Below the pieces are notes generated by a model, which saw only the letters and a list, made by a program, of their open reading frames with translations, made no database searches and was not told the origin of the DNA. 64,000 nucleotides of DNA from an uncultured Candidatus Saccharibacteria bacterium (GTDB lineage: Bacteria > Patescibacteriota > Minisyncoccia > Phycocordibacterales > Phycocordibacteraceae): positions 15,280 through 79,279 of the forward strand of contig CAYMNZ010000001.1 of assembly GCA_964391975.1 (NCBI GenBank), in the 5' to 3' direction. A program made the translations under genes and the position numbers. How positions within the stretch are numbered: the first letter of the stretch is position 1; each line of letters opens with the position of its first letter. Below, one piece after another: positions 1,928 through 43,412 of the stretch.

Positions 1928-4075
<2,148 letters not shown>

Positions 4076-4086
4076 TCCTCCCCACA

Positions 4087-4117
4087 TAAAAAGAGCCGCA
4101 GATGCGGCTCTTTTTAT
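4087..4117. terminator. bidirectional Rho-independent terminator after fusA
   Basis: aaaaagagccgca-gat-gcggctctttttatt; a perfect hairpin flanked by an A-run and a T-run; the minus-strand gene ends at 4117. Confidence 0.8.
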
Positions 4118-4671
4118 TATTGTGCCTCTGCTGCTTTTTCTTCGAGGACTCGCGTGGACTCAGTTTGGAGTATGCGGGTAAGGGAGCTGTCGAATTCGTC
4201 TGATGTTATCCCGAAGGTCGAGCGGAACTCGGCGCGCAGTTCGCTTACATAGCGGTACCCGAGGGCGAATGACACCCGTACGTCAGAGGTAGCCGCGTGT
4301 TCGGTCGCTTTAGCGTGGTCAAAGAGCGCGTCGTAATGCTTTTTCACTATCGTGTCGATGATGGGGCTACGGTCATTGGGGTGGAGGCTATCGATGAGCT
4401 TGTGCAACTTGTTTGTCGCCTCACCTTGTCCGAGCTTCGCATTCTGTTCGGCGGCCAACAGGCGTTCAGGCTCGATGGGAGGTACTGAGGTAGCGTTCAC
4501 AATCTGGAGCGCCTCCTCGATTTTCATTCTTTTCTGCTCTGCGGGATTTTTCCCTCCTTGTTCCACTCTGGCGCTCATAGACGTTACTTGGTCAGTTACA
4601 GGGGATAGATACTCAGTGTACACCCACCGTCTTCCTTGGAGGGAGGACAAGATAGACTTTATCCCCGTCAT
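4117..4671 (-). CDS. hypothetical protein between fusA and tuf (opposite strand)
   Basis: 184-aa ORF, no family recognised; bounded by the fusA terminator and a ~210-nt divergent intergenic region upstream of tuf. Confidence 0.5.
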   Translation of the reverse strand: MTGIKSILSSLQGRRWVYTEYLSPVTDQVTSMSARVEQGGKNPAEQKRMKIEEALQIVNATSVPPIEPERLLAAEQNAKLGQGEATNKLHKLIDSLHPNDRSPIIDTIVKKHYDALFDHAKATEHAATSDVRVSFALGYRYVSELRAEFRSTFGITSDEFDSSLTRILQTESTRVLEEKAAEAQ

Positions 4672-4883: not shown

Positions 4884-6080
<1,197 letters not shown>

Positions 6081-6096
6081 GCCAGGTATCACTCGT

Positions 6097-6453
6097 ATGG
6101 CCACCAAAGCTACCAAGACCCTGAAGAAAGAAGCGTCGGCTCCAACCGAGCCGAAGCTCCGCATCCGGGTCCGCGCCTACGAGCACAAGATTCTCGATCT
6201 CTCGGTAAAGCAGATTATGGACACCGCTAATCGCTTCGAAGCGAAAATCGTTGGCCCCGTTCCGCTCCCGACTGAGATAAAGCGATGGACCGTGAACCGC
6301 TCAACGTTCGTCCACAAGGACGCACGCGAGCAGTTCGAAATGCGCATCCACAAGCGACTCATCGATATCCTCTCCCCGAATCCGAAGGTCATCGAGGCTC
6401 TCACGAACCTCAACCTTCCATCCGGAGTGACGATTGACGTGAAGATGGTCTAA
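6097..6453 (+). CDS. rpsJ: 30S ribosomal protein S10 (with short N-terminal extension)
   Basis: 118 aa; IRVRAYEHKILD...RSTFVHKDAREQFE core; 16 nt after the tuf stop. Confidence 0.92.
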   Translation: MATKATKTLKKEASAPTEPKLRIRVRAYEHKILDLSVKQIMDTANRFEAKIVGPVPLPTEIKRWTVNRSTFVHKDAREQFEMRIHKRLIDILSPNPKVIEALTNLNLPSGVTIDVKMV

Positions 6454-6463
6454 CCAGGCCGCA

Positions 6464-6500
6464 GAAAAGCCGCCCCCACAGGGGGCGGCTTTTCTTTATT
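6464..6500 (+). terminator. Rho-independent terminator after rpsJ
   Basis: aaaagccgccccc-aca-gggggcggcttttctttatt. Confidence 0.8.
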
Positions 6501-6548
6501 CCCACCAGTGCTAGGCTTAAAGGATACCCGTAACGCTGTAACAAACGC

Positions 6549-6854
6549 ATGGTACGAGAAATTGGAGAAGGCATGCACGACGTCCGTCCACCTCAGAAAG
6601 CGGAGAGGCCGCGCGCGTGGCGCCCGAAGACAGGAGAGGCAATTACCATCACCAAGCGCGGCGGAGGCATCGTTGCACAAGGTCGCCTTGATGCAGACCT
6701 CAACATCATCGATGGCAGACCAGCAGCCTTCCGTATAGGGGGCGCCGCAGAGGACCTTCTCCCAAGCGTGGTGAGTTCAAACCAAGAGGGAAAGAAACTT
6801 GTTGTCGTGACCAAGAAAGGAATCTTTGAGATAAATAAGGAGACCGTTCACTAA
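6549..6854 (+). CDS. hypothetical protein (first of three genes inserted between rpsJ and rplC)
   Basis: 101-aa ORF followed by its own terminator; start may be the internal Met (MHDVRPP, near 6573). Confidence 0.45.
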   Translation: MVREIGEGMHDVRPPQKAERPRAWRPKTGEAITITKRGGGIVAQGRLDADLNIIDGRPAAFRIGGAAEDLLPSVVSSNQEGKKLVVVTKKGIFEINKETVH

Positions 6855-6855
6855 A

Positions 6856-6886
6856 CAACCGCCCCAGAGATGGGGCGGTTTTTGTT
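6856..6886 (+). terminator. Rho-independent terminator
   Basis: aaccgcccc-agaga-tggggcggtttttgtt. Confidence 0.75.
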
Positions 6887-6900
6887 ATACTCTCTTCATC

Positions 6901-7863
6901 ATGTTTGAGCGGAAAAACCCCATTCCCAAGCTGAGCGAGCAACGGAAGCGAGAAAAGGCAAAGTATCGAGATGAGGGGCTCAAAAGGAATGCGAAGGATA
7001 GGCGCGAGCAGCTGTTGTACTCAGATCCCCTTGGCTACCTCGGGGATTTACTCACCGGCAAACTTCCAACCGCTAAACAACTTGGTGAAGAGCTGAAAGC
7101 ACGCGATCAGGAGCGCCTTAAGAAACTAGTGCTAGAGGCGAAAGATGCGGCGCGCATTATGATGCTCGACGATGCGACGAGCTATCGCGCACACGAAATG
7201 GAACACGAGCTTCCGATGGTAGAGCTTGGGGCCTGGCTAGAGGGTGCCCTACGAGAGGGGAAGCTGCCAGATACTATCATTGCTGAGGACGTTACGGGTC
7301 GACCGCTGGCGCAGATATGTCGCACCCTCCTCACGCTCCTGAACAAGAGAATCCATCCCGATGCTGAAAATGTACCAGTTATCTCGTATGCGGTTGGACG
7401 ATATACGTCGCCCACGTTGGCGAAGCAACTCGCCCAGGGCGTGGCACAGAAGCTTGAAAAGCGAGGTGCGCGCAATGTGCTGGTCTGCACCGATGCTGTT
7501 GAGACTGGAAGCTCGATGGGCCCGCTGCTCACTGAAATTGGAGGACAATCGTACTCTCTCGCTCTTATGATAGATAGGATTACTCCACGCGCCGAGACGA
7601 TGATACTAGAACGTACGGAGAAGAATCCGGCCGTGCACATCTCGCTTCACCCAGATATGGATATTGGACAAGATTCAGTACTTATCATGCGTACGCTCGA
7701 GCGTCGGTATAAGAAAAACGCTGATTACAGAGACCTCCTCCTGGTGATAGAAGAGCTAGAGAACCGCCCGTACCGCCTCCAGGCAATTGAAGAGATTGCC
7801 AACGTGCTTTATGAAACCTTCCTCGAACGCCCTGGGGTGCAACAGCTCTTGCCCGCTCAGTAA
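6901..7863 (+). CDS. hypothetical protein with a C-terminal type I phosphoribosyltransferase-like PRPP-binding motif
   Basis: 320 aa; motif NVLVCTDAVETGSSMG resembles the PRTase signature (compare comF in this window: IVVDDVLTTGSTL); ~190-aa N-terminal extension of unknown type. Confidence 0.5.
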   Translation: MFERKNPIPKLSEQRKREKAKYRDEGLKRNAKDRREQLLYSDPLGYLGDLLTGKLPTAKQLGEELKARDQERLKKLVLEAKDAARIMMLDDATSYRAHEMEHELPMVELGAWLEGALREGKLPDTIIAEDVTGRPLAQICRTLLTLLNKRIHPDAENVPVISYAVGRYTSPTLAKQLAQGVAQKLEKRGARNVLVCTDAVETGSSMGPLLTEIGGQSYSLALMIDRITPRAETMILERTEKNPAVHISLHPDMDIGQDSVLIMRTLERRYKKNADYRDLLLVIEELENRPYRLQAIEEIANVLYETFLERPGVQQLLPAQ

Positions 7864-7878
7864 GGGTATACTTTTCGC

Positions 7879-8238
7879 ATGGCTTCTCCAGAAACTCCTA
7901 CGCACTCGGCTAACAAGGACATTCCAACTCTTTCGGTTGCGGCCATTGCTACTGAATACAAAGACATACTCGACCGCTACAATCGGTTCATTGATTCTCA
8001 GATGGTTGCGCTTGGGAAGCCAAAGGAGGTGGTAGAAGAACCCCCTCCGAGCGAACAGGCACGCGGAGAACTGCTCTGGAAGGAGCTTCTCCGGAGGGCG
8101 GTTGCCGGGAACGCCGAAGCCAAGCAGGCCATTATCGAGATTGATGTAGATGATGAGCTCAAAGAGCCTGATGGCTCTCTGAGCAAAGAAACGCTTCAGC
8201 GCCTTCTCGACTCCTCTGACACTCTGGCGGACGGCTAG
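7879..8238 (+). CDS. hypothetical acidic protein
   Basis: 119-aa ORF, co-directional, 15 nt after the preceding gene; no family recognised. Confidence 0.45.
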   Translation: MASPETPTHSANKDIPTLSVAAIATEYKDILDRYNRFIDSQMVALGKPKEVVEEPPPSEQARGELLWKELLRRAVAGNAEAKQAIIEIDVDDELKEPDGSLSKETLQRLLDSSDTLADG

Positions 8239-8356
8239 CTTGCGCTTTTTAGGCCCCGCCTGTATAGTCCTCGAAACGCTACGTACCTCCTCGGAGGGAC
8301 CAATGGCCGGAAAGGGGAGACCCTCTACGCGCTATTGAAGGCGCGTTTTCCATTTC

Positions 8357-8962
8357 ATGAAATTCATCCTCGCTCGCAAAGACTGCATGACCCAGATCTT
8401 CGATGATCAGGGTATTGTCCACGCCGGAACCATCCTCAAGGTGGTGCCGAACGTCGTCACGCAGGTGAAGGCCAAGGACGGCAAGGACGGCTATGCCGCT
8501 GTCCAGGTAGGAATGGACGCGCAGACTGAGAAGCGCCTCAACAAGCCTCAGTTCGGCAAGGCCTTTAAAGTACTTAAGGAATTCCGCGTTGATGACACTG
8601 CAGGCTTTGAGGTGGGCAACGAGATTACGCTTGATACCTTCGCTCCCGGCGATGGGGTCCGCGTTGTGGGTACCTCCAAGGGTAAGGGCTTCTCGGGTGT
8701 GGTGAAGCGCCATGGTTTCCATGGTGGTCGCCGCTCCCACGGTCAGAAGCACTCTGAGCGCGAGGCAGGTTCCATCGGTGGAGGAGGTCGCGCCGGAGGC
8801 CGTGTGGCTAAGGGTATGCGCATGGCCGGCCGTATGGGTGGAGAGCGCGTTACCGTCACCAACCTCAAGGTGCTTCACATCGACAGCAAGAGCGGCGAGA
8901 TGATTATCTCAGGCGCTGTTCCGGGTCCTCGTGGCTCCGTCGTGGAAATCATTTCCGCATAA
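8357..8962 (+). CDS. rplC: 50S ribosomal protein L3
   Basis: 201 aa; KFILARKDCMTQIFD...GTSKGKGFSGVVKRHGF L3 signature. Confidence 0.95.
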   Translation: MKFILARKDCMTQIFDDQGIVHAGTILKVVPNVVTQVKAKDGKDGYAAVQVGMDAQTEKRLNKPQFGKAFKVLKEFRVDDTAGFEVGNEITLDTFAPGDGVRVVGTSKGKGFSGVVKRHGFHGGRRSHGQKHSEREAGSIGGGGRAGGRVAKGMRMAGRMGGERVTVTNLKVLHIDSKSGEMIISGAVPGPRGSVVEIISA

Positions 8963-8970
8963 ATTTTCGT

Positions 8971-9732
8971 ATGGCAACTACCAAAAAGACAACCGTAAAG
9001 AAGACAGCCCCTAAGAAGGCAGCAGCACCACGCGCAAAGAAGGCGCCTGAGATTACCGCCGGCAAGGACGAGGCAGTTGTCTTCGGCATGGATGGCTCTA
9101 AGAGTGGCACCGTCGCTCTTCCAGCAGAGCTCTTCGGCGTGCAGTGGAACGCAGACCTCGTACACCAGGTCGTCGTTGGTATGCAGGCAAACGCTCGCCC
9201 AACGGTCGCTAACACCAAGTTCCGCGGTGAAGTATCCGGAGGAGGAAAGAAGCCGTGGAAGCAGAAGGGTACGGGACGCGCTCGTCACGGTTCTAACCGC
9301 TCCCCAATCTGGGTAGGTGGAGGTACCTCTCACGGCCCTCGCGCAGAGCGCCTCTACACCGTGAAGATCAACAAGAAGATGCGCACCGCCGCTCTTATGT
9401 CAGTTCTTTCTCGCAAGATGAAGGATGGTGAAGTGATTCTTGTTGAGAAGATGTCCTTTGGTACGCCAAAGACCTCCGCAGCAGTGAAGACCCTTTCTGC
9501 ACTCGCTAAGGCAGCTGATGCGCCGAACCTCACGAAGAAGCGCGTAAACGCTGCACTCATCGTGCTCTCGGGTAACGATGCGAACGTGAAGAAGAGCTTC
9601 CGCAACATCGGCAACATCACGAGCGAGGAGGTTCGTAACCTCAACCCCGTGGACATCATGAACCGCCGCTACCTCGTGATTGAGAACCCGACGGAATCCT
9701 TTGCGGTTCTTTCCGGCAAACTAAAGAAATAA
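8971..9732 (+). CDS. rplD: 50S ribosomal protein L4 (K/A-rich N-terminal extension)
   Basis: 253 aa; L4 core (GGGKKPWKQKGTGRARHGS) preceded by a ~30-aa Lys/Ala-rich extension. Confidence 0.93.
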   Translation: MATTKKTTVKKTAPKKAAAPRAKKAPEITAGKDEAVVFGMDGSKSGTVALPAELFGVQWNADLVHQVVVGMQANARPTVANTKFRGEVSGGGKKPWKQKGTGRARHGSNRSPIWVGGGTSHGPRAERLYTVKINKKMRTAALMSVLSRKMKDGEVILVEKMSFGTPKTSAAVKTLSALAKAADAPNLTKKRVNAALIVLSGNDANVKKSFRNIGNITSEEVRNLNPVDIMNRRYLVIENPTESFAVLSGKLKK

Positions 9733-9735
9733 TTT

Positions 9736-10092
9736 ATGGGACTCTTTTCATCCGACAAGAAGAAAGTAACGAAGACCAAAAAGGTCTCGAAGGCAAAGAA
9801 GCCTGCAGTCATGAACGCTAACACCGTGCTTAAAGCACCGTGGATGAGCGAGAAGGCACTCATTGGTACCGAGAAGGGCGTCTACGTCTTTGAGGTACCA
9901 CCTGAGGCAACCAAGACCGATGTCATTGCTGCTATGGAGACCATCTACAAGGTCACGCCTCGCCAGATTCGCATGGTGAACCTTCCAGGTAAGCGCAAAG
10001 CTCTTCGCCACAAGCGCGGTATGGGAACACGTGCACGCCGCCACAAGGCCTACGTCTACCTCAAGAAGGGAGACACCATCACCCTCGTCTAA
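9736..10092 (+). CDS. rplW: 50S ribosomal protein L23
   Basis: 118 aa; position and sequence (YVFEVPPEATKTDV) match L23. Confidence 0.9.
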   Translation: MGLFSSDKKKVTKTKKVSKAKKPAVMNANTVLKAPWMSEKALIGTEKGVYVFEVPPEATKTDVIAAMETIYKVTPRQIRMVNLPGKRKALRHKRGMGTRARRHKAYVYLKKGDTITLV

Positions 10093-10103
10093 CCTTTAGC
10101 ACT

Positions 10104-10946
10104 ATGAAATCCTACAAACCGTACACCAAGAGCCGCCGTGGCATGACCACACTGCCGTACAAGCAGCTTCTTTCCGGTGACCGCCCATTCAAGGCCCTCT
10201 TGAAGGCGAAGAAGGACCAGGCAGGACGCAACTCCCAGGGCCGCGTTACTACGCGCCACCAGGGAGGCGGCCACAAGAAGCGCCTTCGCGATGTCGACTT
10301 CCAGTACAACAAGAAGAACATCCCGGCGAAGGTTGAGACTATCGAGTACGATCCATACCGTACCGGTTTCATCGCGCTTGCGCTCTACGCAGACGGCGCT
10401 CGCCGCTACGTGCTCGCACCTAAGGACCTTAAGGTCGGCGACAGCTTTGTTGTCTCTGAGGACGCACCAGTTAAGACTGGTAACCGCATGCCGCTTGGCA
10501 AGATTCCTACCGGTACCTTCGTGTACAACATCGAGCTCCAGGTTGGAGCCGGCGCACGCCTCGCTCGCTCTGCAGGTAACTATGCAGAAGTCATCGCGCA
10601 TGACGCAGGCTATGCGCAGATCAAGCTTCCTTCGACTGAGGTCCGCAAGGTCTCTGACCTCTGCTGGGCATCCATCGGTGCAGTGGGCAACGAAGAGAGT
10701 CGCCTCGTGAAGTATGGAAAGGCAGGACGCTCTCGTTGGAAGGGTATTCGCCCTACGGTGCGTGGTACGGCTATGAACCCGGTAGATCACCCACACGGAG
10801 GAGGTGAAGGACGTCAGGGTCGTGGTCTCCGTCGTGCAAAGACTATGTGGGGCAAGCCATCCGGCAAGGGACAGAAGACTCGTACGCCGAAGAAGTACTC
10901 GAACTCACACATCGTTTCTCGCCGAAAGGTTGGCAAGAAGGGATAA
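10104..10946 (+). CDS. rplB: 50S ribosomal protein L2
   Basis: 280 aa; GRNSQGRVTTRHQGGGHKK and C-terminal GGGEGRQG motifs. Confidence 0.96.
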   Translation: MKSYKPYTKSRRGMTTLPYKQLLSGDRPFKALLKAKKDQAGRNSQGRVTTRHQGGGHKKRLRDVDFQYNKKNIPAKVETIEYDPYRTGFIALALYADGARRYVLAPKDLKVGDSFVVSEDAPVKTGNRMPLGKIPTGTFVYNIELQVGAGARLARSAGNYAEVIAHDAGYAQIKLPSTEVRKVSDLCWASIGAVGNEESRLVKYGKAGRSRWKGIRPTVRGTAMNPVDHPHGGGEGRQGRGLRRAKTMWGKPSGKGQKTRTPKKYSNSHIVSRRKVGKKG

Positions 10947-10948
10947 GC

Positions 10949-10978
10949 AAAAGACCGGGGTTGACCCGGTCTTTTTTG
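10949..10978 (+). terminator. Rho-independent terminator after rplB
   Basis: aaaagaccgggg-ttga-cccggtcttttttgtt. Confidence 0.8.
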
Positions 10979-10990
10979 TTACGTTTCTTG

Positions 10991-10996
10991 TATAAT
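10991..10996 (+). promoter_or_regulatory. candidate -10 box (TATAAT) 6 nt upstream of the ATG of the PEK-repeat micro-gene
   Basis: A perfect TATAAT hexamer only 6 nt before the ATG (11003) implies a transcript start at or next to the start codon (leaderless mRNA); no convincing -35. Confidence 0.3.
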
Positions 10997-11002
10997 TACC
11001 CT

Positions 11003-11206
11003 ATGCCAGCCCCAGAAAAACCAGAGAAACTGCAGAAAAAGAAACCAGAGAAACCAGAGAAACCAGAGAAACCAGAGAAACCAGAGAAACTGCAGAAAAA
11101 GGAATCAGATCCAGTTGAGGAAGTAGATACCTCTAACGAAGACCACTGGTTTGGTAGCGACTCATCAATGGGTCCTCGGTACGATAACGAGAGCGAAGAA
11201 TTTTAA
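11003..11206 (+). CDS. small protein with (PEKPEK)n tandem repeats
   Basis: 67 aa: MPAPEKPEKLQKKKPEKPEKPEKPEKPEKLQKKESDPVEEVDTSNEDHWFGSDSSMGPRYDNESEEF. The ORF-track ORF 10847..11206 overlaps the rplB 3' end and was trimmed to the internal ATG behind the TATAAT box. Own terminators on both sides. Confidence 0.5.
   Translation: MPAPEKPEKLQKKKPEKPEKPEKPEKPEKLQKKESDPVEEVDTSNEDHWFGSDSSMGPRYDNESEEF
11018..11100 (+). repeat. 9-bp tandem repeat (aaaccagag)n with two aaactgcag variants, coding
   Basis: Seen directly: aaaccagag x1, aaactgcag, aaaaag, aaaccagag x5, aaactgcag; encodes PEK/LQK repeats. Confidence 0.9.
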
Positions 11207-11218
11207 GAAGCGGTAGAT

Positions 11219-11250
11219 AAGAACCCTGCAGATGCAGGGTTCTTTCTATT
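11219..11250. terminator. bidirectional terminator between the PEK gene (+) and the DUF3298-like gene (-)
   Basis: agaaccctgca-gat-gcagggttctttctatt. Confidence 0.7.
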
Positions 11251-12049
11251 GGTACTTCGCTTTCAGTATTGCAGAGAGTTCGCTCTTCGGAAGGCGCACT
11301 TCCTGCATTCCGAGCGCCCACGGGCCTACCTGATACGGAGCGAAGATGATAACGAGCGCATTCCCCTCAAGGTAGAAGTTGAGGTAGTTGTCCTCGTCAG
11401 GGGTCGTGCCCGCGTCAATCATGTCCATATTGAGCTCTGACTCGCTTACGCCTGATACCTCTGCAATCTGTGTCACGAGCTTCGCGCGAGAGCTTGATGA
11501 GAGTCGTGCAAGGTAGTCGCTTCCAGGAACGAAGAGGTCTCCGAGCGTGAGTCCCTCACCGGTTTCCTTGTCGAAGGTGAAGGTGCGGTAGTAGGCGTTG
11601 GGGTGCGCGCCAAGGGTATCTGCGTACATGAGATAGACGTACGAGACAGTTGAATCGGAGGTGTGGAGCTCGTACTCCATACCGAAGGCATACTTTCTCT
11701 CACCACCAAGTCCCTGCACCTCAATGTCTTCCGCAGAAAGGGAAAGCAGCTGGTTCTCCTCCTTGAAGGACTCGACTGATATTTCCGCGAACTGCTTCAT
11801 GACCTCAACGGCGTGTGCATCGGCTCCAGCGCCTGCTGACGCCCTGAGTGGGGTCTGATTGGGGTATGCCGCCTCAATCTCCCAATACTGCTCGTTCTCC
11901 CTAATAACCCCTGCTTCCGCCTGTGGCTCTCCTACCTGAGGAGCAGGCACCTCAGGGGCAGGAGTGCTGGCCATATACCAGATAAGGGCGCCCAGGATGA
12001 TAATGATGAGGGCGATACCCCCGATAAGTAGCTTCTTGTTGGTGTCCAT
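11246..12049 (-). CDS. membrane-anchored DUF3298/DUF4163-like protein (RsiV-type C-terminal domain)
   Basis: 267 aa; N-terminal TM helix (LLIGGIALIIIILGALIWYM); C-terminus ...NYLNFYLEGNALVIIFAPYQVGPWALGMQEVRLP matches the DUF3298 motif. Confidence 0.6.
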   Translation of the reverse strand: MDTNKKLLIGGIALIIIILGALIWYMASTPAPEVPAPQVGEPQAEAGVIRENEQYWEIEAAYPNQTPLRASAGAGADAHAVEVMKQFAEISVESFKEENQLLSLSAEDIEVQGLGGERKYAFGMEYELHTSDSTVSYVYLMYADTLGAHPNAYYRTFTFDKETGEGLTLGDLFVPGSDYLARLSSSSRAKLVTQIAEVSGVSESELNMDMIDAGTTPDEDNYLNFYLEGNALVIIFAPYQVGPWALGMQEVRLPKSELSAILKAKYQ

Positions 12050-12102
12050 ACCTCTCTATACTACCCCCTACCCGGAAGGAATCATGAAGAATAGGCCGTA
12101 AT

Positions 12103-12129
12103 TTGACACTACGCCCTCTTTCCTATAGA
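12103..12129 (+). promoter_or_regulatory. candidate sigma70-like promoter upstream of rpsS (TTGACA-15nt-TATAGA)
   Basis: TTGACA at 12103-12108 and TATAGA at 12124-12129 in the 121-nt gap that restarts the r-protein cluster; the 15-nt spacer is short of optimal. Confidence 0.3.
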
Positions 12130-12170
12130 TTTCACCTATCCCGCGACGCGGGCTTTTCATTGCTTAACTC

Positions 12171-40120: not shown

Positions 40121-40529
40121 TGTGGAGGTGGGGAGAATTGAACTCCCGTCCGAATCCGTCTTCGACAGCGACTCTACGACGCATAGTCCTGGTTAGAGAC
40201 TGGGGCAGGGTGCGAGGAACCAGAACGAAACCACTCCTGCCTGATCCCTTATTTAGAGAATACGTTCGGGAGGACGTACCTCGATTCCCTAGATGATTCC
40301 ACCCGGGCCGGACACTACGGAAGCTGAGCCGGTCGGATGTCGCTTAGGCGAGGCGTTTATGCAACGCGCGCGTAAGCGAACGCGAAATCGGACTTACTAA
40401 AGTAAGGCGAGATCACGCTTGCAAGAGTGTTCTTGGCAAGTTTGGGTGCCTGCGGGATTAAGGTGGTCAGCAGACTTCCACCGCGTCGCACGTCTGTCAA
40501 AGAGCAGACCGTCAAAACCGGTCACCCCC
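40121..40529 (-). ncRNA. ssrA: tmRNA (transfer-messenger RNA)
   Basis: Minus sense 5' GGGGGTGACCGGTTTTGACGG... (compare E. coli GGGGCUGAUUCUGGAUUCGACGGG) and 3' ...GGACGGGAGTTCAATTCTCCCCACCTCCA (T-arm plus acceptor). The acceptor pairs GGGGGTG/CACCTCC with G3-U70; CCA not encoded; directly downstream of smpB. Confidence 0.85.
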
Positions 40530-43335: not shown

Positions 43336-43412
43336 TGGTCCACCCGCTTGGACTCGAACCAAGGACCCTCGAGGTATAAGCTCGATGCTCTAACCAGCTG
43401 AGCTACGGGTGG
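43336..43412 (-). tRNA. tRNA-Ile with anticodon UAU (reads AUA); CCA encoded
   Basis: Minus sense CCACCCG-TA-GCTC-AGCTGGTTA-GAGC-A-TCGAG-CTTATAC-CTCGA-GGGTC-CTTGG-TTCGAGT-CCAAG-CGGGTGG-A-CCA. Full cloverleaf; anticodon loop CU-UAU-AC; discriminator A. Confidence 0.8.

Follow-up and report, generated by a model that had tools for sequence, protein, structure and literature searches.

Few gene orders in bacteria are as conserved as that of the ribosomal protein (r-protein) cluster, which routinely serves the binning and phylogenomics of uncultured lineages. In Escherichia coli, the leader of the S10 operon combines L4-mediated transcription attenuation with translational repression. Another form of leader control involves PyrR, a homologue of uracil phosphoribosyltransferase (UPRTase) and an RNA-binding attenuation protein with a phosphoribosyltransferase (PRT) fold, which binds pyr leaders, while variable slots between conserved core genes, or chromosomal hotspots, are a general concept of pangenomics. 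Bacteria of the candidate phyla radiation (CPR) have reduced ribosomes and few known regulators. Here, we describe the junction between rpsJ and rplC in a 64,000-nt stretch of contig CAYMNZ010000001.1 (hereafter, the window), in which three open reading frames (ORFs) separate these two S10 operon genes. We interpret this junction as a probable slot for accessory genes, lying between two putative transcription units, the second of which is preceded by a strong candidate for a new r-protein leader.

The E. coli S10 leader element is confined to Gammaproteobacteria (PMC3616713). A survey of new r-protein leaders gives an L4 candidate upstream of rplC, rplD, rplW and rplB in Archaeoglobi only and includes no leader from CPR bacteria (Eckert and Weinberg 2020, PMC7247131, Table 1). 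Our literature search found no reported S10-operon split or r-protein leader in Patescibacteria/CPR. The leader in the window resembles that of E. coli in its 5′ position, its structure, a hairpin of the terminator type and plausible alternative folds, and in the unit that it would control, which contains rplC-rplD-rplW-rplB. It differs in preceding rplC rather than rpsJ, because rpsJ here belongs to the tuf unit, and in having no Rfam sequence or structure match. With the Archaeoglobi candidate it shares its position upstream of rplC-rplD-rplW-rplB, but the latter is an archaeal motif, and the leader in the window returned no hit at the gathering score in Rfam 15 and no family at E values up to 10 over positions 8239–8356. 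The likeness to PyrR lies in a predicted PRT-fold protein (the 320-aa product of the second inserted ORF, here called X) being encoded beside a terminator/antiterminator-type leader; unlike the PyrR case, the leader is widespread where X is lacking. Finally, the junction is reminiscent of hotspots in carrying heterogeneous, rapidly exchanged cargo, including toxin–antitoxin genes, at a fixed place with sharp identity break-points at the flanks, but differs in lying inside the highly conserved str-S10 cluster, in lacking an integrase, tRNA or repeats and in harbouring a long-lived gene family (X).

Organisation of the split S10 operon

The window is a fragment of a Patescibacteria (CPR) genome, and the database proteins nearest to its own bear the labels Candidatus Pacebacteria or Patescibacteria. 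The genes tuf (4884–6080) and rpsJ (6097–6453; Pfam Ribosomal_S10, E value 6e-34) lie 16 nt apart, in an order common to all relatives compared, and form the putative upstream transcription unit (4884–6453), of which tuf is the first gene. They are followed by terminator T1 (6463–6503), ORF101 (6549–6854, 101 aa; gene callers take a 93-aa start at 6573), a second terminator, T2 (6857–6885), X (6901–7863) and ORF119 (7879–8238; 119 aa, acidic, pI 4.5), which starts 15 nt past the X stop codon. A 118-nt spacer (8239–8356) precedes rplC (8357–8962; Pfam Ribosomal_L3), which heads the putative downstream unit rplC-rplD-rplW-rplB (8357–10946, ending with rplB). tuf and all genes from rpsJ to rplB, including the three inserted ORFs, are on the + strand. 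These coordinates confirm the layout described by an earlier sequence-only reading of the window, namely rpsJ, a strong terminator, ORFs of 101, 320 and 119 aa, a 118-nt spacer and rplC.

That reading had also taken the three genes to be non-ribosomal and inserted where rpsJ and rplC normally abut, which is borne out by the gap sizes that we measured in 80 loci surrounding L3 homologues in species-representative genomes. None of the ten actinobacterial and Chloroflexi loci with both genes had a gap of 300 nt or more, let alone 800 nt (maximum 106 nt). Among the 58 CPR loci with both genes, the gap was at least 300 nt in 18 and at least 800 nt in ten, with a maximum of 2464 nt.

Both T1 and T2 are stable GC-rich hairpins running directly into a U-run, as is characteristic of Rho-independent terminators. 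T1 has a perfect 15-bp stem (6463–6495; inverted repeat I6 in the repeat search, 100 % complementary) with a 3-nt loop, followed by UUUUCUUUAUU; its folding energy is −30.2 kcal/mol (z −6.0), matched by none of 200 shuffles. T2 (AACCGCCCCAGAGATGGGGCGGTT plus U-run; stem-loop 6857–6880) folds at −20.4 kcal/mol (z −4.8 vs shuffled sequence). Weak Rfam matches to the rnk, Phe and Thr leaders were rejected, being merely the T1 and T2 hairpins. All X-bearing relatives have a terminator hairpin within ~15 nt of the rpsJ stop codon: AACCGCCCCAGAGATGGGGCGGTTTTT in L010 and L006, close variants of it in L005, L001 and L218 and a more diverged version in L007.

The putative rplC promoter, TTGCGC-17 nt-TATAGT (8240–8268), starts 2 nt past the ORF119 stop codon. 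In every X-bearing lineage compared (six plus L218), a site of the form TTGC(A/G)(T/C)-17 nt-TATAGT lies 2–7 nt past the last cargo gene, the hexamers and the 17-nt spacing being fixed and the spacer sequence variable. GTATAGT or GTAGAGT also stands at the 5′ end of most aligned leaders, and we propose that this site is the rplC promoter. The start regions of rpsJ, X, rplC and rplD (~6080–6096, 6886–6900, 8347–8356 and 8963–8970) show no obvious Shine–Dalgarno sequence.

On this basis, the S10 operon probably comprises two transcription units here, tuf-rpsJ and rplC-rplD-rplW-rplB, with a predicted terminator and predicted promoters. We envisage that the slot arose when the operon was split, long ago, in this branch of the Paceibacteria (Patescibacteria/CPR, near Kaiserbacteria): the first unit would end at the intrinsic terminator after rpsJ and the second would start at its own promoter (TTGCNN-17 nt-TATAGT) and a structured attenuator-type leader of ~85 nt, leaving between them a functionally insulated stretch of DNA, flanked by extremely conserved genes, that could serve as an accessory slot. 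Among close relatives, genes would enter this slot, be exchanged and disappear again, probably through homologous recombination via the conserved flanks, with ORF101 as a species-specific insert, X as an old resident with its own −10 box and ORF119 as a small acidic neighbour. The r-protein cluster would thus, in one CPR branch, be broken into separately controlled units at a break that tolerates rapid turnover of accessory genes.

A candidate leader RNA upstream of rplC

The main gain from this locus is, in our view, a well-supported candidate for a new cis-regulatory RNA upstream of rplC, more valuable than the cargo genes themselves. The ~100 nt preceding rplC are 93 % identical in five lineages, among which X falls to 47–52 % and L23 to 71 % identity. 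The structured leader (8273–8356) consists of a conserved 5′ domain, ACGCUACGUAC-P2 hairpin (8286–8297)-GGACCAAUGG, an inner hairpin GGGG/CCCU and, at its 3′ end, a GC-rich hairpin (8327–8346) with a U-run, 10 nt before the AUG. In the minimum-free-energy fold, P1 (GAAACGC/GCGUUUU) and P3 (CAAUGGCCG/CGCGCUAUUG) sequester both arms of the terminator hairpin, so that the leader could switch between antiterminator and terminator forms.

About 22 lineages were found to carry the leader 5′ of rplC. With five leader sequences as input, a first covariance model placed it directly 5′ of rplC in L018, L028, L048, L019 and L038, and a second model, built from 17, gave independent hits in L218 (79.5 bits), L023 (42.9 bits), L025 (34.6 bits), L068 (26.4 bits) and L058 (21.7 bits); this second model had 13 hits in 939 kb, every one of them immediately 5′ of rplC. 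Eight metagenome contigs also carry the leader; the pattern used on metagenomes was loose, and these eight, recovered by covariance model, are the true leaders among the 120 loci that it returned. Most of the 22 leaders have the GC-rich hairpin (core GCGC) with a U-rich tail ~10–15 nt before the AUG, and the sequence around the rplC start, UUUC-AUGAAAUUCAUC, hardly varies over the leader-bearing lineages.

Covariation supports the fold. In the model-fitted alignment, 94.7 % of cells were paired, compared with 80.4 % in shuffles and 36–48 % in slid controls, and fifteen pairs showed compensatory changes, a number reached by none of 500 shuffles. An independent alignment of 21 sequences with MAFFT and RNAalifold recovered the P2 hairpin with five covarying pairs. 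A conserved, covarying structure that stands consistently 5′ of an r-protein operon is what is expected of an r-protein leader, and we regard the element as a strong candidate for a new one.

Its presence does not depend on the cargo. The leader is retained where the gap is only 162–170 nt (L019 and L025) and where rpsJ is not nearby (L048 and L058), it occurs in at least 14 lineages lacking X and it is almost unchanged (104.7 bits) in L119, a close relative without X. The leader would accordingly belong to rplC and not to the cargo, with feedback control operating through the choice between the P1/P3 antiterminator and the terminator hairpin. Its ligand is probably a protein encoded in the operon, with L4 favoured by precedent only.

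Gene content of the proposed rpsJ–rplC slot

Related Paceibacteria hold unrelated genes between rpsJ and rplC, and for this reason we read the junction as an accessory-gene slot, which would exist because the operon forms two transcription units. The cargo comprises a PemK/MazF toxin in L032, a ParE/RelE toxin with a partner in L062, an NYN domain in L023, GNAT and MOSC domains in L125, a PaaX-like protein in L163, a sugar transferase in L038 and a SpoU methylase in L072, the last together with a 287-aa ORF that was read as a methyltransferase without a family scan. Other large gaps contain several ORFans. A hidden Markov model search found no X homologue among the gap ORFs of other lineages. 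The rpsJ–rplC region of the window has no integrase, transposase, insertion sequence (IS) element or tRNA, and its only repeat is the diverged T1/T2 pair (direct repeat D3, 75 % identity over 24 nt). In L212, a second S10-like stretch (1590–1865, 30 % identical) lies in the slot directly 3′ of rpsJ and contains no intact ORF of 70 aa or more; it may be a decayed rpsJ duplicate.

Our assessment is that the three genes in the window are probably replaceable cargo, the current contents of the slot, and not ribosomal components. Since binning and phylogenomics draw on the gene order of the r-protein cluster, a position within this cluster should not by itself be taken as a sign that a gene is related to translation.

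None of the three predicted proteins had a significant match in Pfam, NCBIfam, PHROGs or PADLOC, the last giving no hit to any known defence or toxin–antitoxin model. The third-position GC content (GC3) of the three ORFs is 0.56–0.585, below that of background genes (0.614 ± 0.027), which is in turn below that of translation genes (0.668 ± 0.035).

ORF101 and ORF119

ORF101 encodes a basic protein found only in its own species among 5.8 billion proteins, and it is absent from L001, L005, L006, L007 and L010. Its closest family signal is a phd-like fragment at an E value of 0.4. The sequence of the T2 stem-loop is the same as that of the single post-rpsJ terminator of L010 and L006 and near-identical to that of L005, while T1 holds the ancestral position directly 3′ of rpsJ, with BLASTn alignments from tuf passing through it in relatives. 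Because the exact rpsJ-terminator sequence of relatives thus follows ORF101, we interpret ORF101 as an insertion bracketed by a duplicated terminator. The sequence-only reading had assigned T2 to ORF101 as its own terminator; it is instead the ancestral rpsJ terminator, found directly after rpsJ in relatives.

It is possible, though we consider it doubtful, that ORF101 is annotation noise, that is, non-coding filler between the two terminator copies. Its confinement to one species, the absence of a family match, the low GC3 and the ambiguous start (101 or 93 aa) would fit this view, as would the situation in L007, where the corresponding space of ~330 nt yields only one call, a 48-aa reverse ORF. 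Nevertheless, the frame is open for 101 codons on the operon strand and stops 2 nt before the T2 terminator, and gene callers predicted it (in its 93-aa form) in three assemblies. We treat ORF101 as a near-orphan, a putative species-specific gene.

Annotation noise does not apply to X or ORF119, both of which are under purifying selection. ORF119 occurs in its own species and in one variant (89 % protein and 91 % DNA identity), against which its dN/dS is 0.12, within the range of L3/L4 (0.06–0.14). A homologue with 36 % identity sits directly 3′ of X in one sister lineage, L007. These data indicate that ORF119 is a real gene of very narrow distribution, and it is probably co-transcribed with X.

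Distribution and turnover of X

X has five homologous 90 %-identity clusters among the 5.8 billion proteins (94, 88, 82, 58 and 52 % identity), and when 1.84 billion representatives were searched exhaustively with a profile, the family came to nine proteins in total. Every contig with one of the five close homologues carries it between rpsJ and rplC, in six lineages. In a seventh lineage, L218, this place is taken by two tandem copies (154–1478 of that locus) with 43 % mutual identity. The first L218 copy seems C-terminally degenerate, and its frame overlaps the N-terminus of the second, as if the replacement of one allele by another were still under way. The 320-aa gene thus keeps its position across a clade of at least seven lineages, and is the only one of the three ORFs conserved beyond close relatives. 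The sequence-only reading had grouped the three genes as a unit; this did not hold, as ORF101 and ORF119 are confined to the species, apart from the 36 % relative of ORF119, and X is swapped or missing in close kin. X is unaccompanied in L004, L005, L006 and L010 and is followed by a Cupin_2 gene in L001. With a dN/dS of 0.09–0.11, compared with 0.06–0.14 for L3/L4, X is, by this measure, a real gene under purifying selection.

The alleles of X do not follow the r-proteins. The latter divide the six lineages into {window, L007, L006} and {L001, L005, L010}, with at least 94 % identity within groups and, between them, 85 % for L3, 77–79 % for L4 and 71 % for L23. The X alleles of the window, L007, L005 and L010 are 79–93 % identical and span both groups, and those of L006 and L001 have 47–59 % identity to all others, including those of same-group genomes. 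The DNA of the window and that of L006 share 94 % identity as far as the rpsJ terminator and 91 % from 8259 on, with X unalignable between them, which sets the identity break-points at ~6499 (terminator) and ~8259 (promoter). In L119 (96 % for tuf, 97 % for S10 and 86 % for L3 relative to the window), which is as close to the window as the second r-protein group, X is missing and the 1.1-kb gap holds two unrelated ORFs. For alleles of the main class, X and the L3/L4 flanks have about the same dS, which, together with the dN/dS of 0.09–0.11, fits vertical descent under purifying selection.

Just beyond the terminator, a TATACT box lies 9 nt (6 nt in L001) 5′ of the X ATG in all six lineages, divergent alleles included; in the window it forms a putative extended −10 element, TGtTATACT (6883–6891, + strand). 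The box did not come up in the −35/−10 promoter scan. Its conservation suggests that X may be transcribed from a promoter of its own, into an mRNA with little or no leader.

Beyond the clade, the distant homologue P0006 adjoins gyrB, and P0009, another distant family member, lies between the genes for ribulose-phosphate 3-epimerase (rpe) and ribose-5-phosphate isomerase B (rpiB) in L220 (4081–6219). The latter is the sole contextual hint that may tie the family to ribose-phosphate or phosphoribosyl pyrophosphate (PRPP) metabolism.

X as a probable, divergent PRT-fold protein

The X protein of the window has no Pfam hit at E values up to 10, including PF00156. Three of the six clade members match PF00156 below its curated gathering threshold (best E value 1.3e-5), and P0007 scores 14.8 bits against a cut-off of 26.3 bits. 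X also shows weak similarity to the UPRTase family. Searching the PDB with a 13-sequence X profile gave more than 40 HGPRT, HPRT, OPRT and APRT chains (best E value 0.0017), all on the PRPP loop VLVCTDAVETGSS. The loop motif, NVLVCTDAVETGSSMG, occupies residues 192–207, exactly where the family profiles align to HGPRT, OPRT and APRT chains, and is parsed as VLVC-TD-AV-ETGSS (the canonical form being four hydrophobic residues, two acidic, two hydrophobic and T/S-G-x-T/S). D198 and G203 are invariant in the 13 sequences and, with G166 and R167, make up the family-invariant set. These matches back the PRTase-type PRPP motif that the sequence-only reading had recognised in the protein, and place it in the middle to C-terminal part instead of at the C-terminus.

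In the AlphaFold model (pLDDT 75), basic N-terminal helices (8–89) are followed by a five-strand alpha/beta core (106–250) that carries ISEDVTGR and the PRPP loop, and by C-terminal helices. The pI of the basic, helical stretch formed by the first 95 residues is 9.6. A Foldseek search with the whole model found no significant match in the PDB or BFVD. Taken together, the profile matches and the predicted fold indicate that X probably belongs to the type-I PRT superfamily, as a very divergent member. It differs from typical members (PF00156; HGPRT, UPRT, OPRT and APRT) in having T or N at the first acidic position of the loop, in its basic helical N-terminal extension of ~95 residues and its C-terminal helices, in the lack of a Pfam hit for the window protein and in its rarity. 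X most likely binds PRPP or a nucleotide 5′-phosphate and may act in nucleotide or ribose-phosphate metabolism or sensing. A tiny and very divergent family with a putative PRT fold is thereby defined for biochemistry.

Alternative explanations

Several points weigh against the slot interpretation. The recombination mechanism is deduced from the break-points, and no integrase, IS element or flanking repeats accompany them; the promoters, terminator activity and leaderless start of X are likewise predictions from sequence. Between X or ORF119 and the rplC promoter and leader there is no terminator; transcripts of X must therefore enter the rplC unit, and X could in transcriptional terms count as a member of the operon. 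Cargo does not usually stay at the same locus in at least seven lineages under strong purifying selection, as X does. T or N at the first acidic position of the PRT pair makes catalysis by X uncertain. Finally, a Smith–Waterman comparison of five leaders and a k-mer search with the conserved cores found similarity to E. coli 23S rRNA only at the level of shuffles.

We think it improbable that the slot is instead a small conflict or defence island, with X as a rapidly diversifying PRT-fold effector, toxin or immunity gene and the small ORFs as its partners. This would account for the deep X allele classes between flanks of >90 % identity, for the divergent tandem copies in L218, for the changing partners of X (ORF119, a pair of 110 and 120 aa or Cupin_2) and for the PemK and ParE toxins and NYN nuclease domain held by the slot elsewhere. 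However, the three ORFs match no PADLOC or PHROG model, main-class X evolves as slowly as L3/L4, X stands alone in four lineages and much of the cargo elsewhere is housekeeping-like (methylases, GNAT and sugar transferase).

There is little to recommend a role at the ribosome, in which X, with or without its small neighbours, would be a lineage-specific member of the rplC operon, such as an assembly or modification factor or a nucleotide sensor. The retained position beside rplC under strong purifying selection, the missing terminator between X and the rplC promoter and leader and the basic helical N-terminus are in keeping with such a role. X is, however, absent from L119 and all other leader-bearing lineages, its L006 and L001 alleles are only 47–59 % identical at the same position, distant family members lie beside gyrB or between rpe and rpiB, the whole family numbers nine representatives in 1.84 billion proteins, the GC3 of X is below background and well below that of r-protein genes, and unrelated cargo fills the same slot in other lineages. 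The sequence-only reading had offered both lineage-specific operon membership and ribosome-associated factors. The first holds in so far as X and ORF119 read into the rplC promoter and leader without an intervening terminator, and fails on the absence of X from L119, the location of its distant homologues and the low GC3; for the second, nothing was found that links the three genes to the ribosome.

We give still less credence to a more elaborate scheme, in which the junction would be a dedicated hypervariable cassette site and X a new PRT-fold conflict or sensor protein, whose alleles are exchanged via the ultra-conserved flanks and whose expression is wired into the rplC attenuator for want of an insulating terminator, so that r-protein synthesis would respond to nucleotide or alarmone status or to phage attack. 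Least credible is a PyrR-like X that binds the rplC leader as a regulator and couples nucleotide or PRPP status to r-protein synthesis: the predicted PRT fold, the weak UPRTase-family similarity, the place directly upstream of a terminator/antiterminator-type leader and the PyrR precedent speak for it, but the leader occurs in X-less lineages, no covariation of X alleles with leader sequence is visible, and the unchanged leader of X-less L119 is our reason for rejecting it as the main explanation.

Other features of the window

The cluster is broken a second time between rplB and rpsS (10847–12170), where rplB is followed by a small ORF with PEKPEK repeats (35–105 aa in relatives) and a DUF3298 gene on the opposite strand (11246–12049). 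This break is also present in L001, L004–L007, L010, L018, L019, L025, L038 and L218, and the DUF3298 gene is 34–47 % identical in the more distant L018, L019, L025 and L038. Ahead of rpsS (12171) is a promoter-like TTGACA-17 nt-TAGATT (10 of 12 matches; region 12103–12170), and a short GC hairpin with a T-run (12140–12152) stands just before its start, with a weak fold (−7.5 kcal/mol, z −1.6). The layout before rpsS resembles that of the rplC leader.

A third variable slot lies between fusA (1928–4075) and tuf. In the window it holds a 184-aa ORF without a family match on the − strand (4117–4671), opposite to tuf and rpsJ, and in L001, L004 and L005 a 376-aa gene and ORFs of 45–47 aa on the + strand.

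Two RNA genes on the − strand were also noted. A tRNA-Ile (43336–43412) has the anticodon UAU, which is uncommon in bacteria as a means of reading AUA codons; most bacteria rely on a lysidine-modified CAU. A tmRNA gene (40122–40529; Rfam, 95 bits) has a predicted tag peptide, ASPKRHPTGSASVVSGPGGII, without the usual hydrophobic ALAA-type C-terminus.

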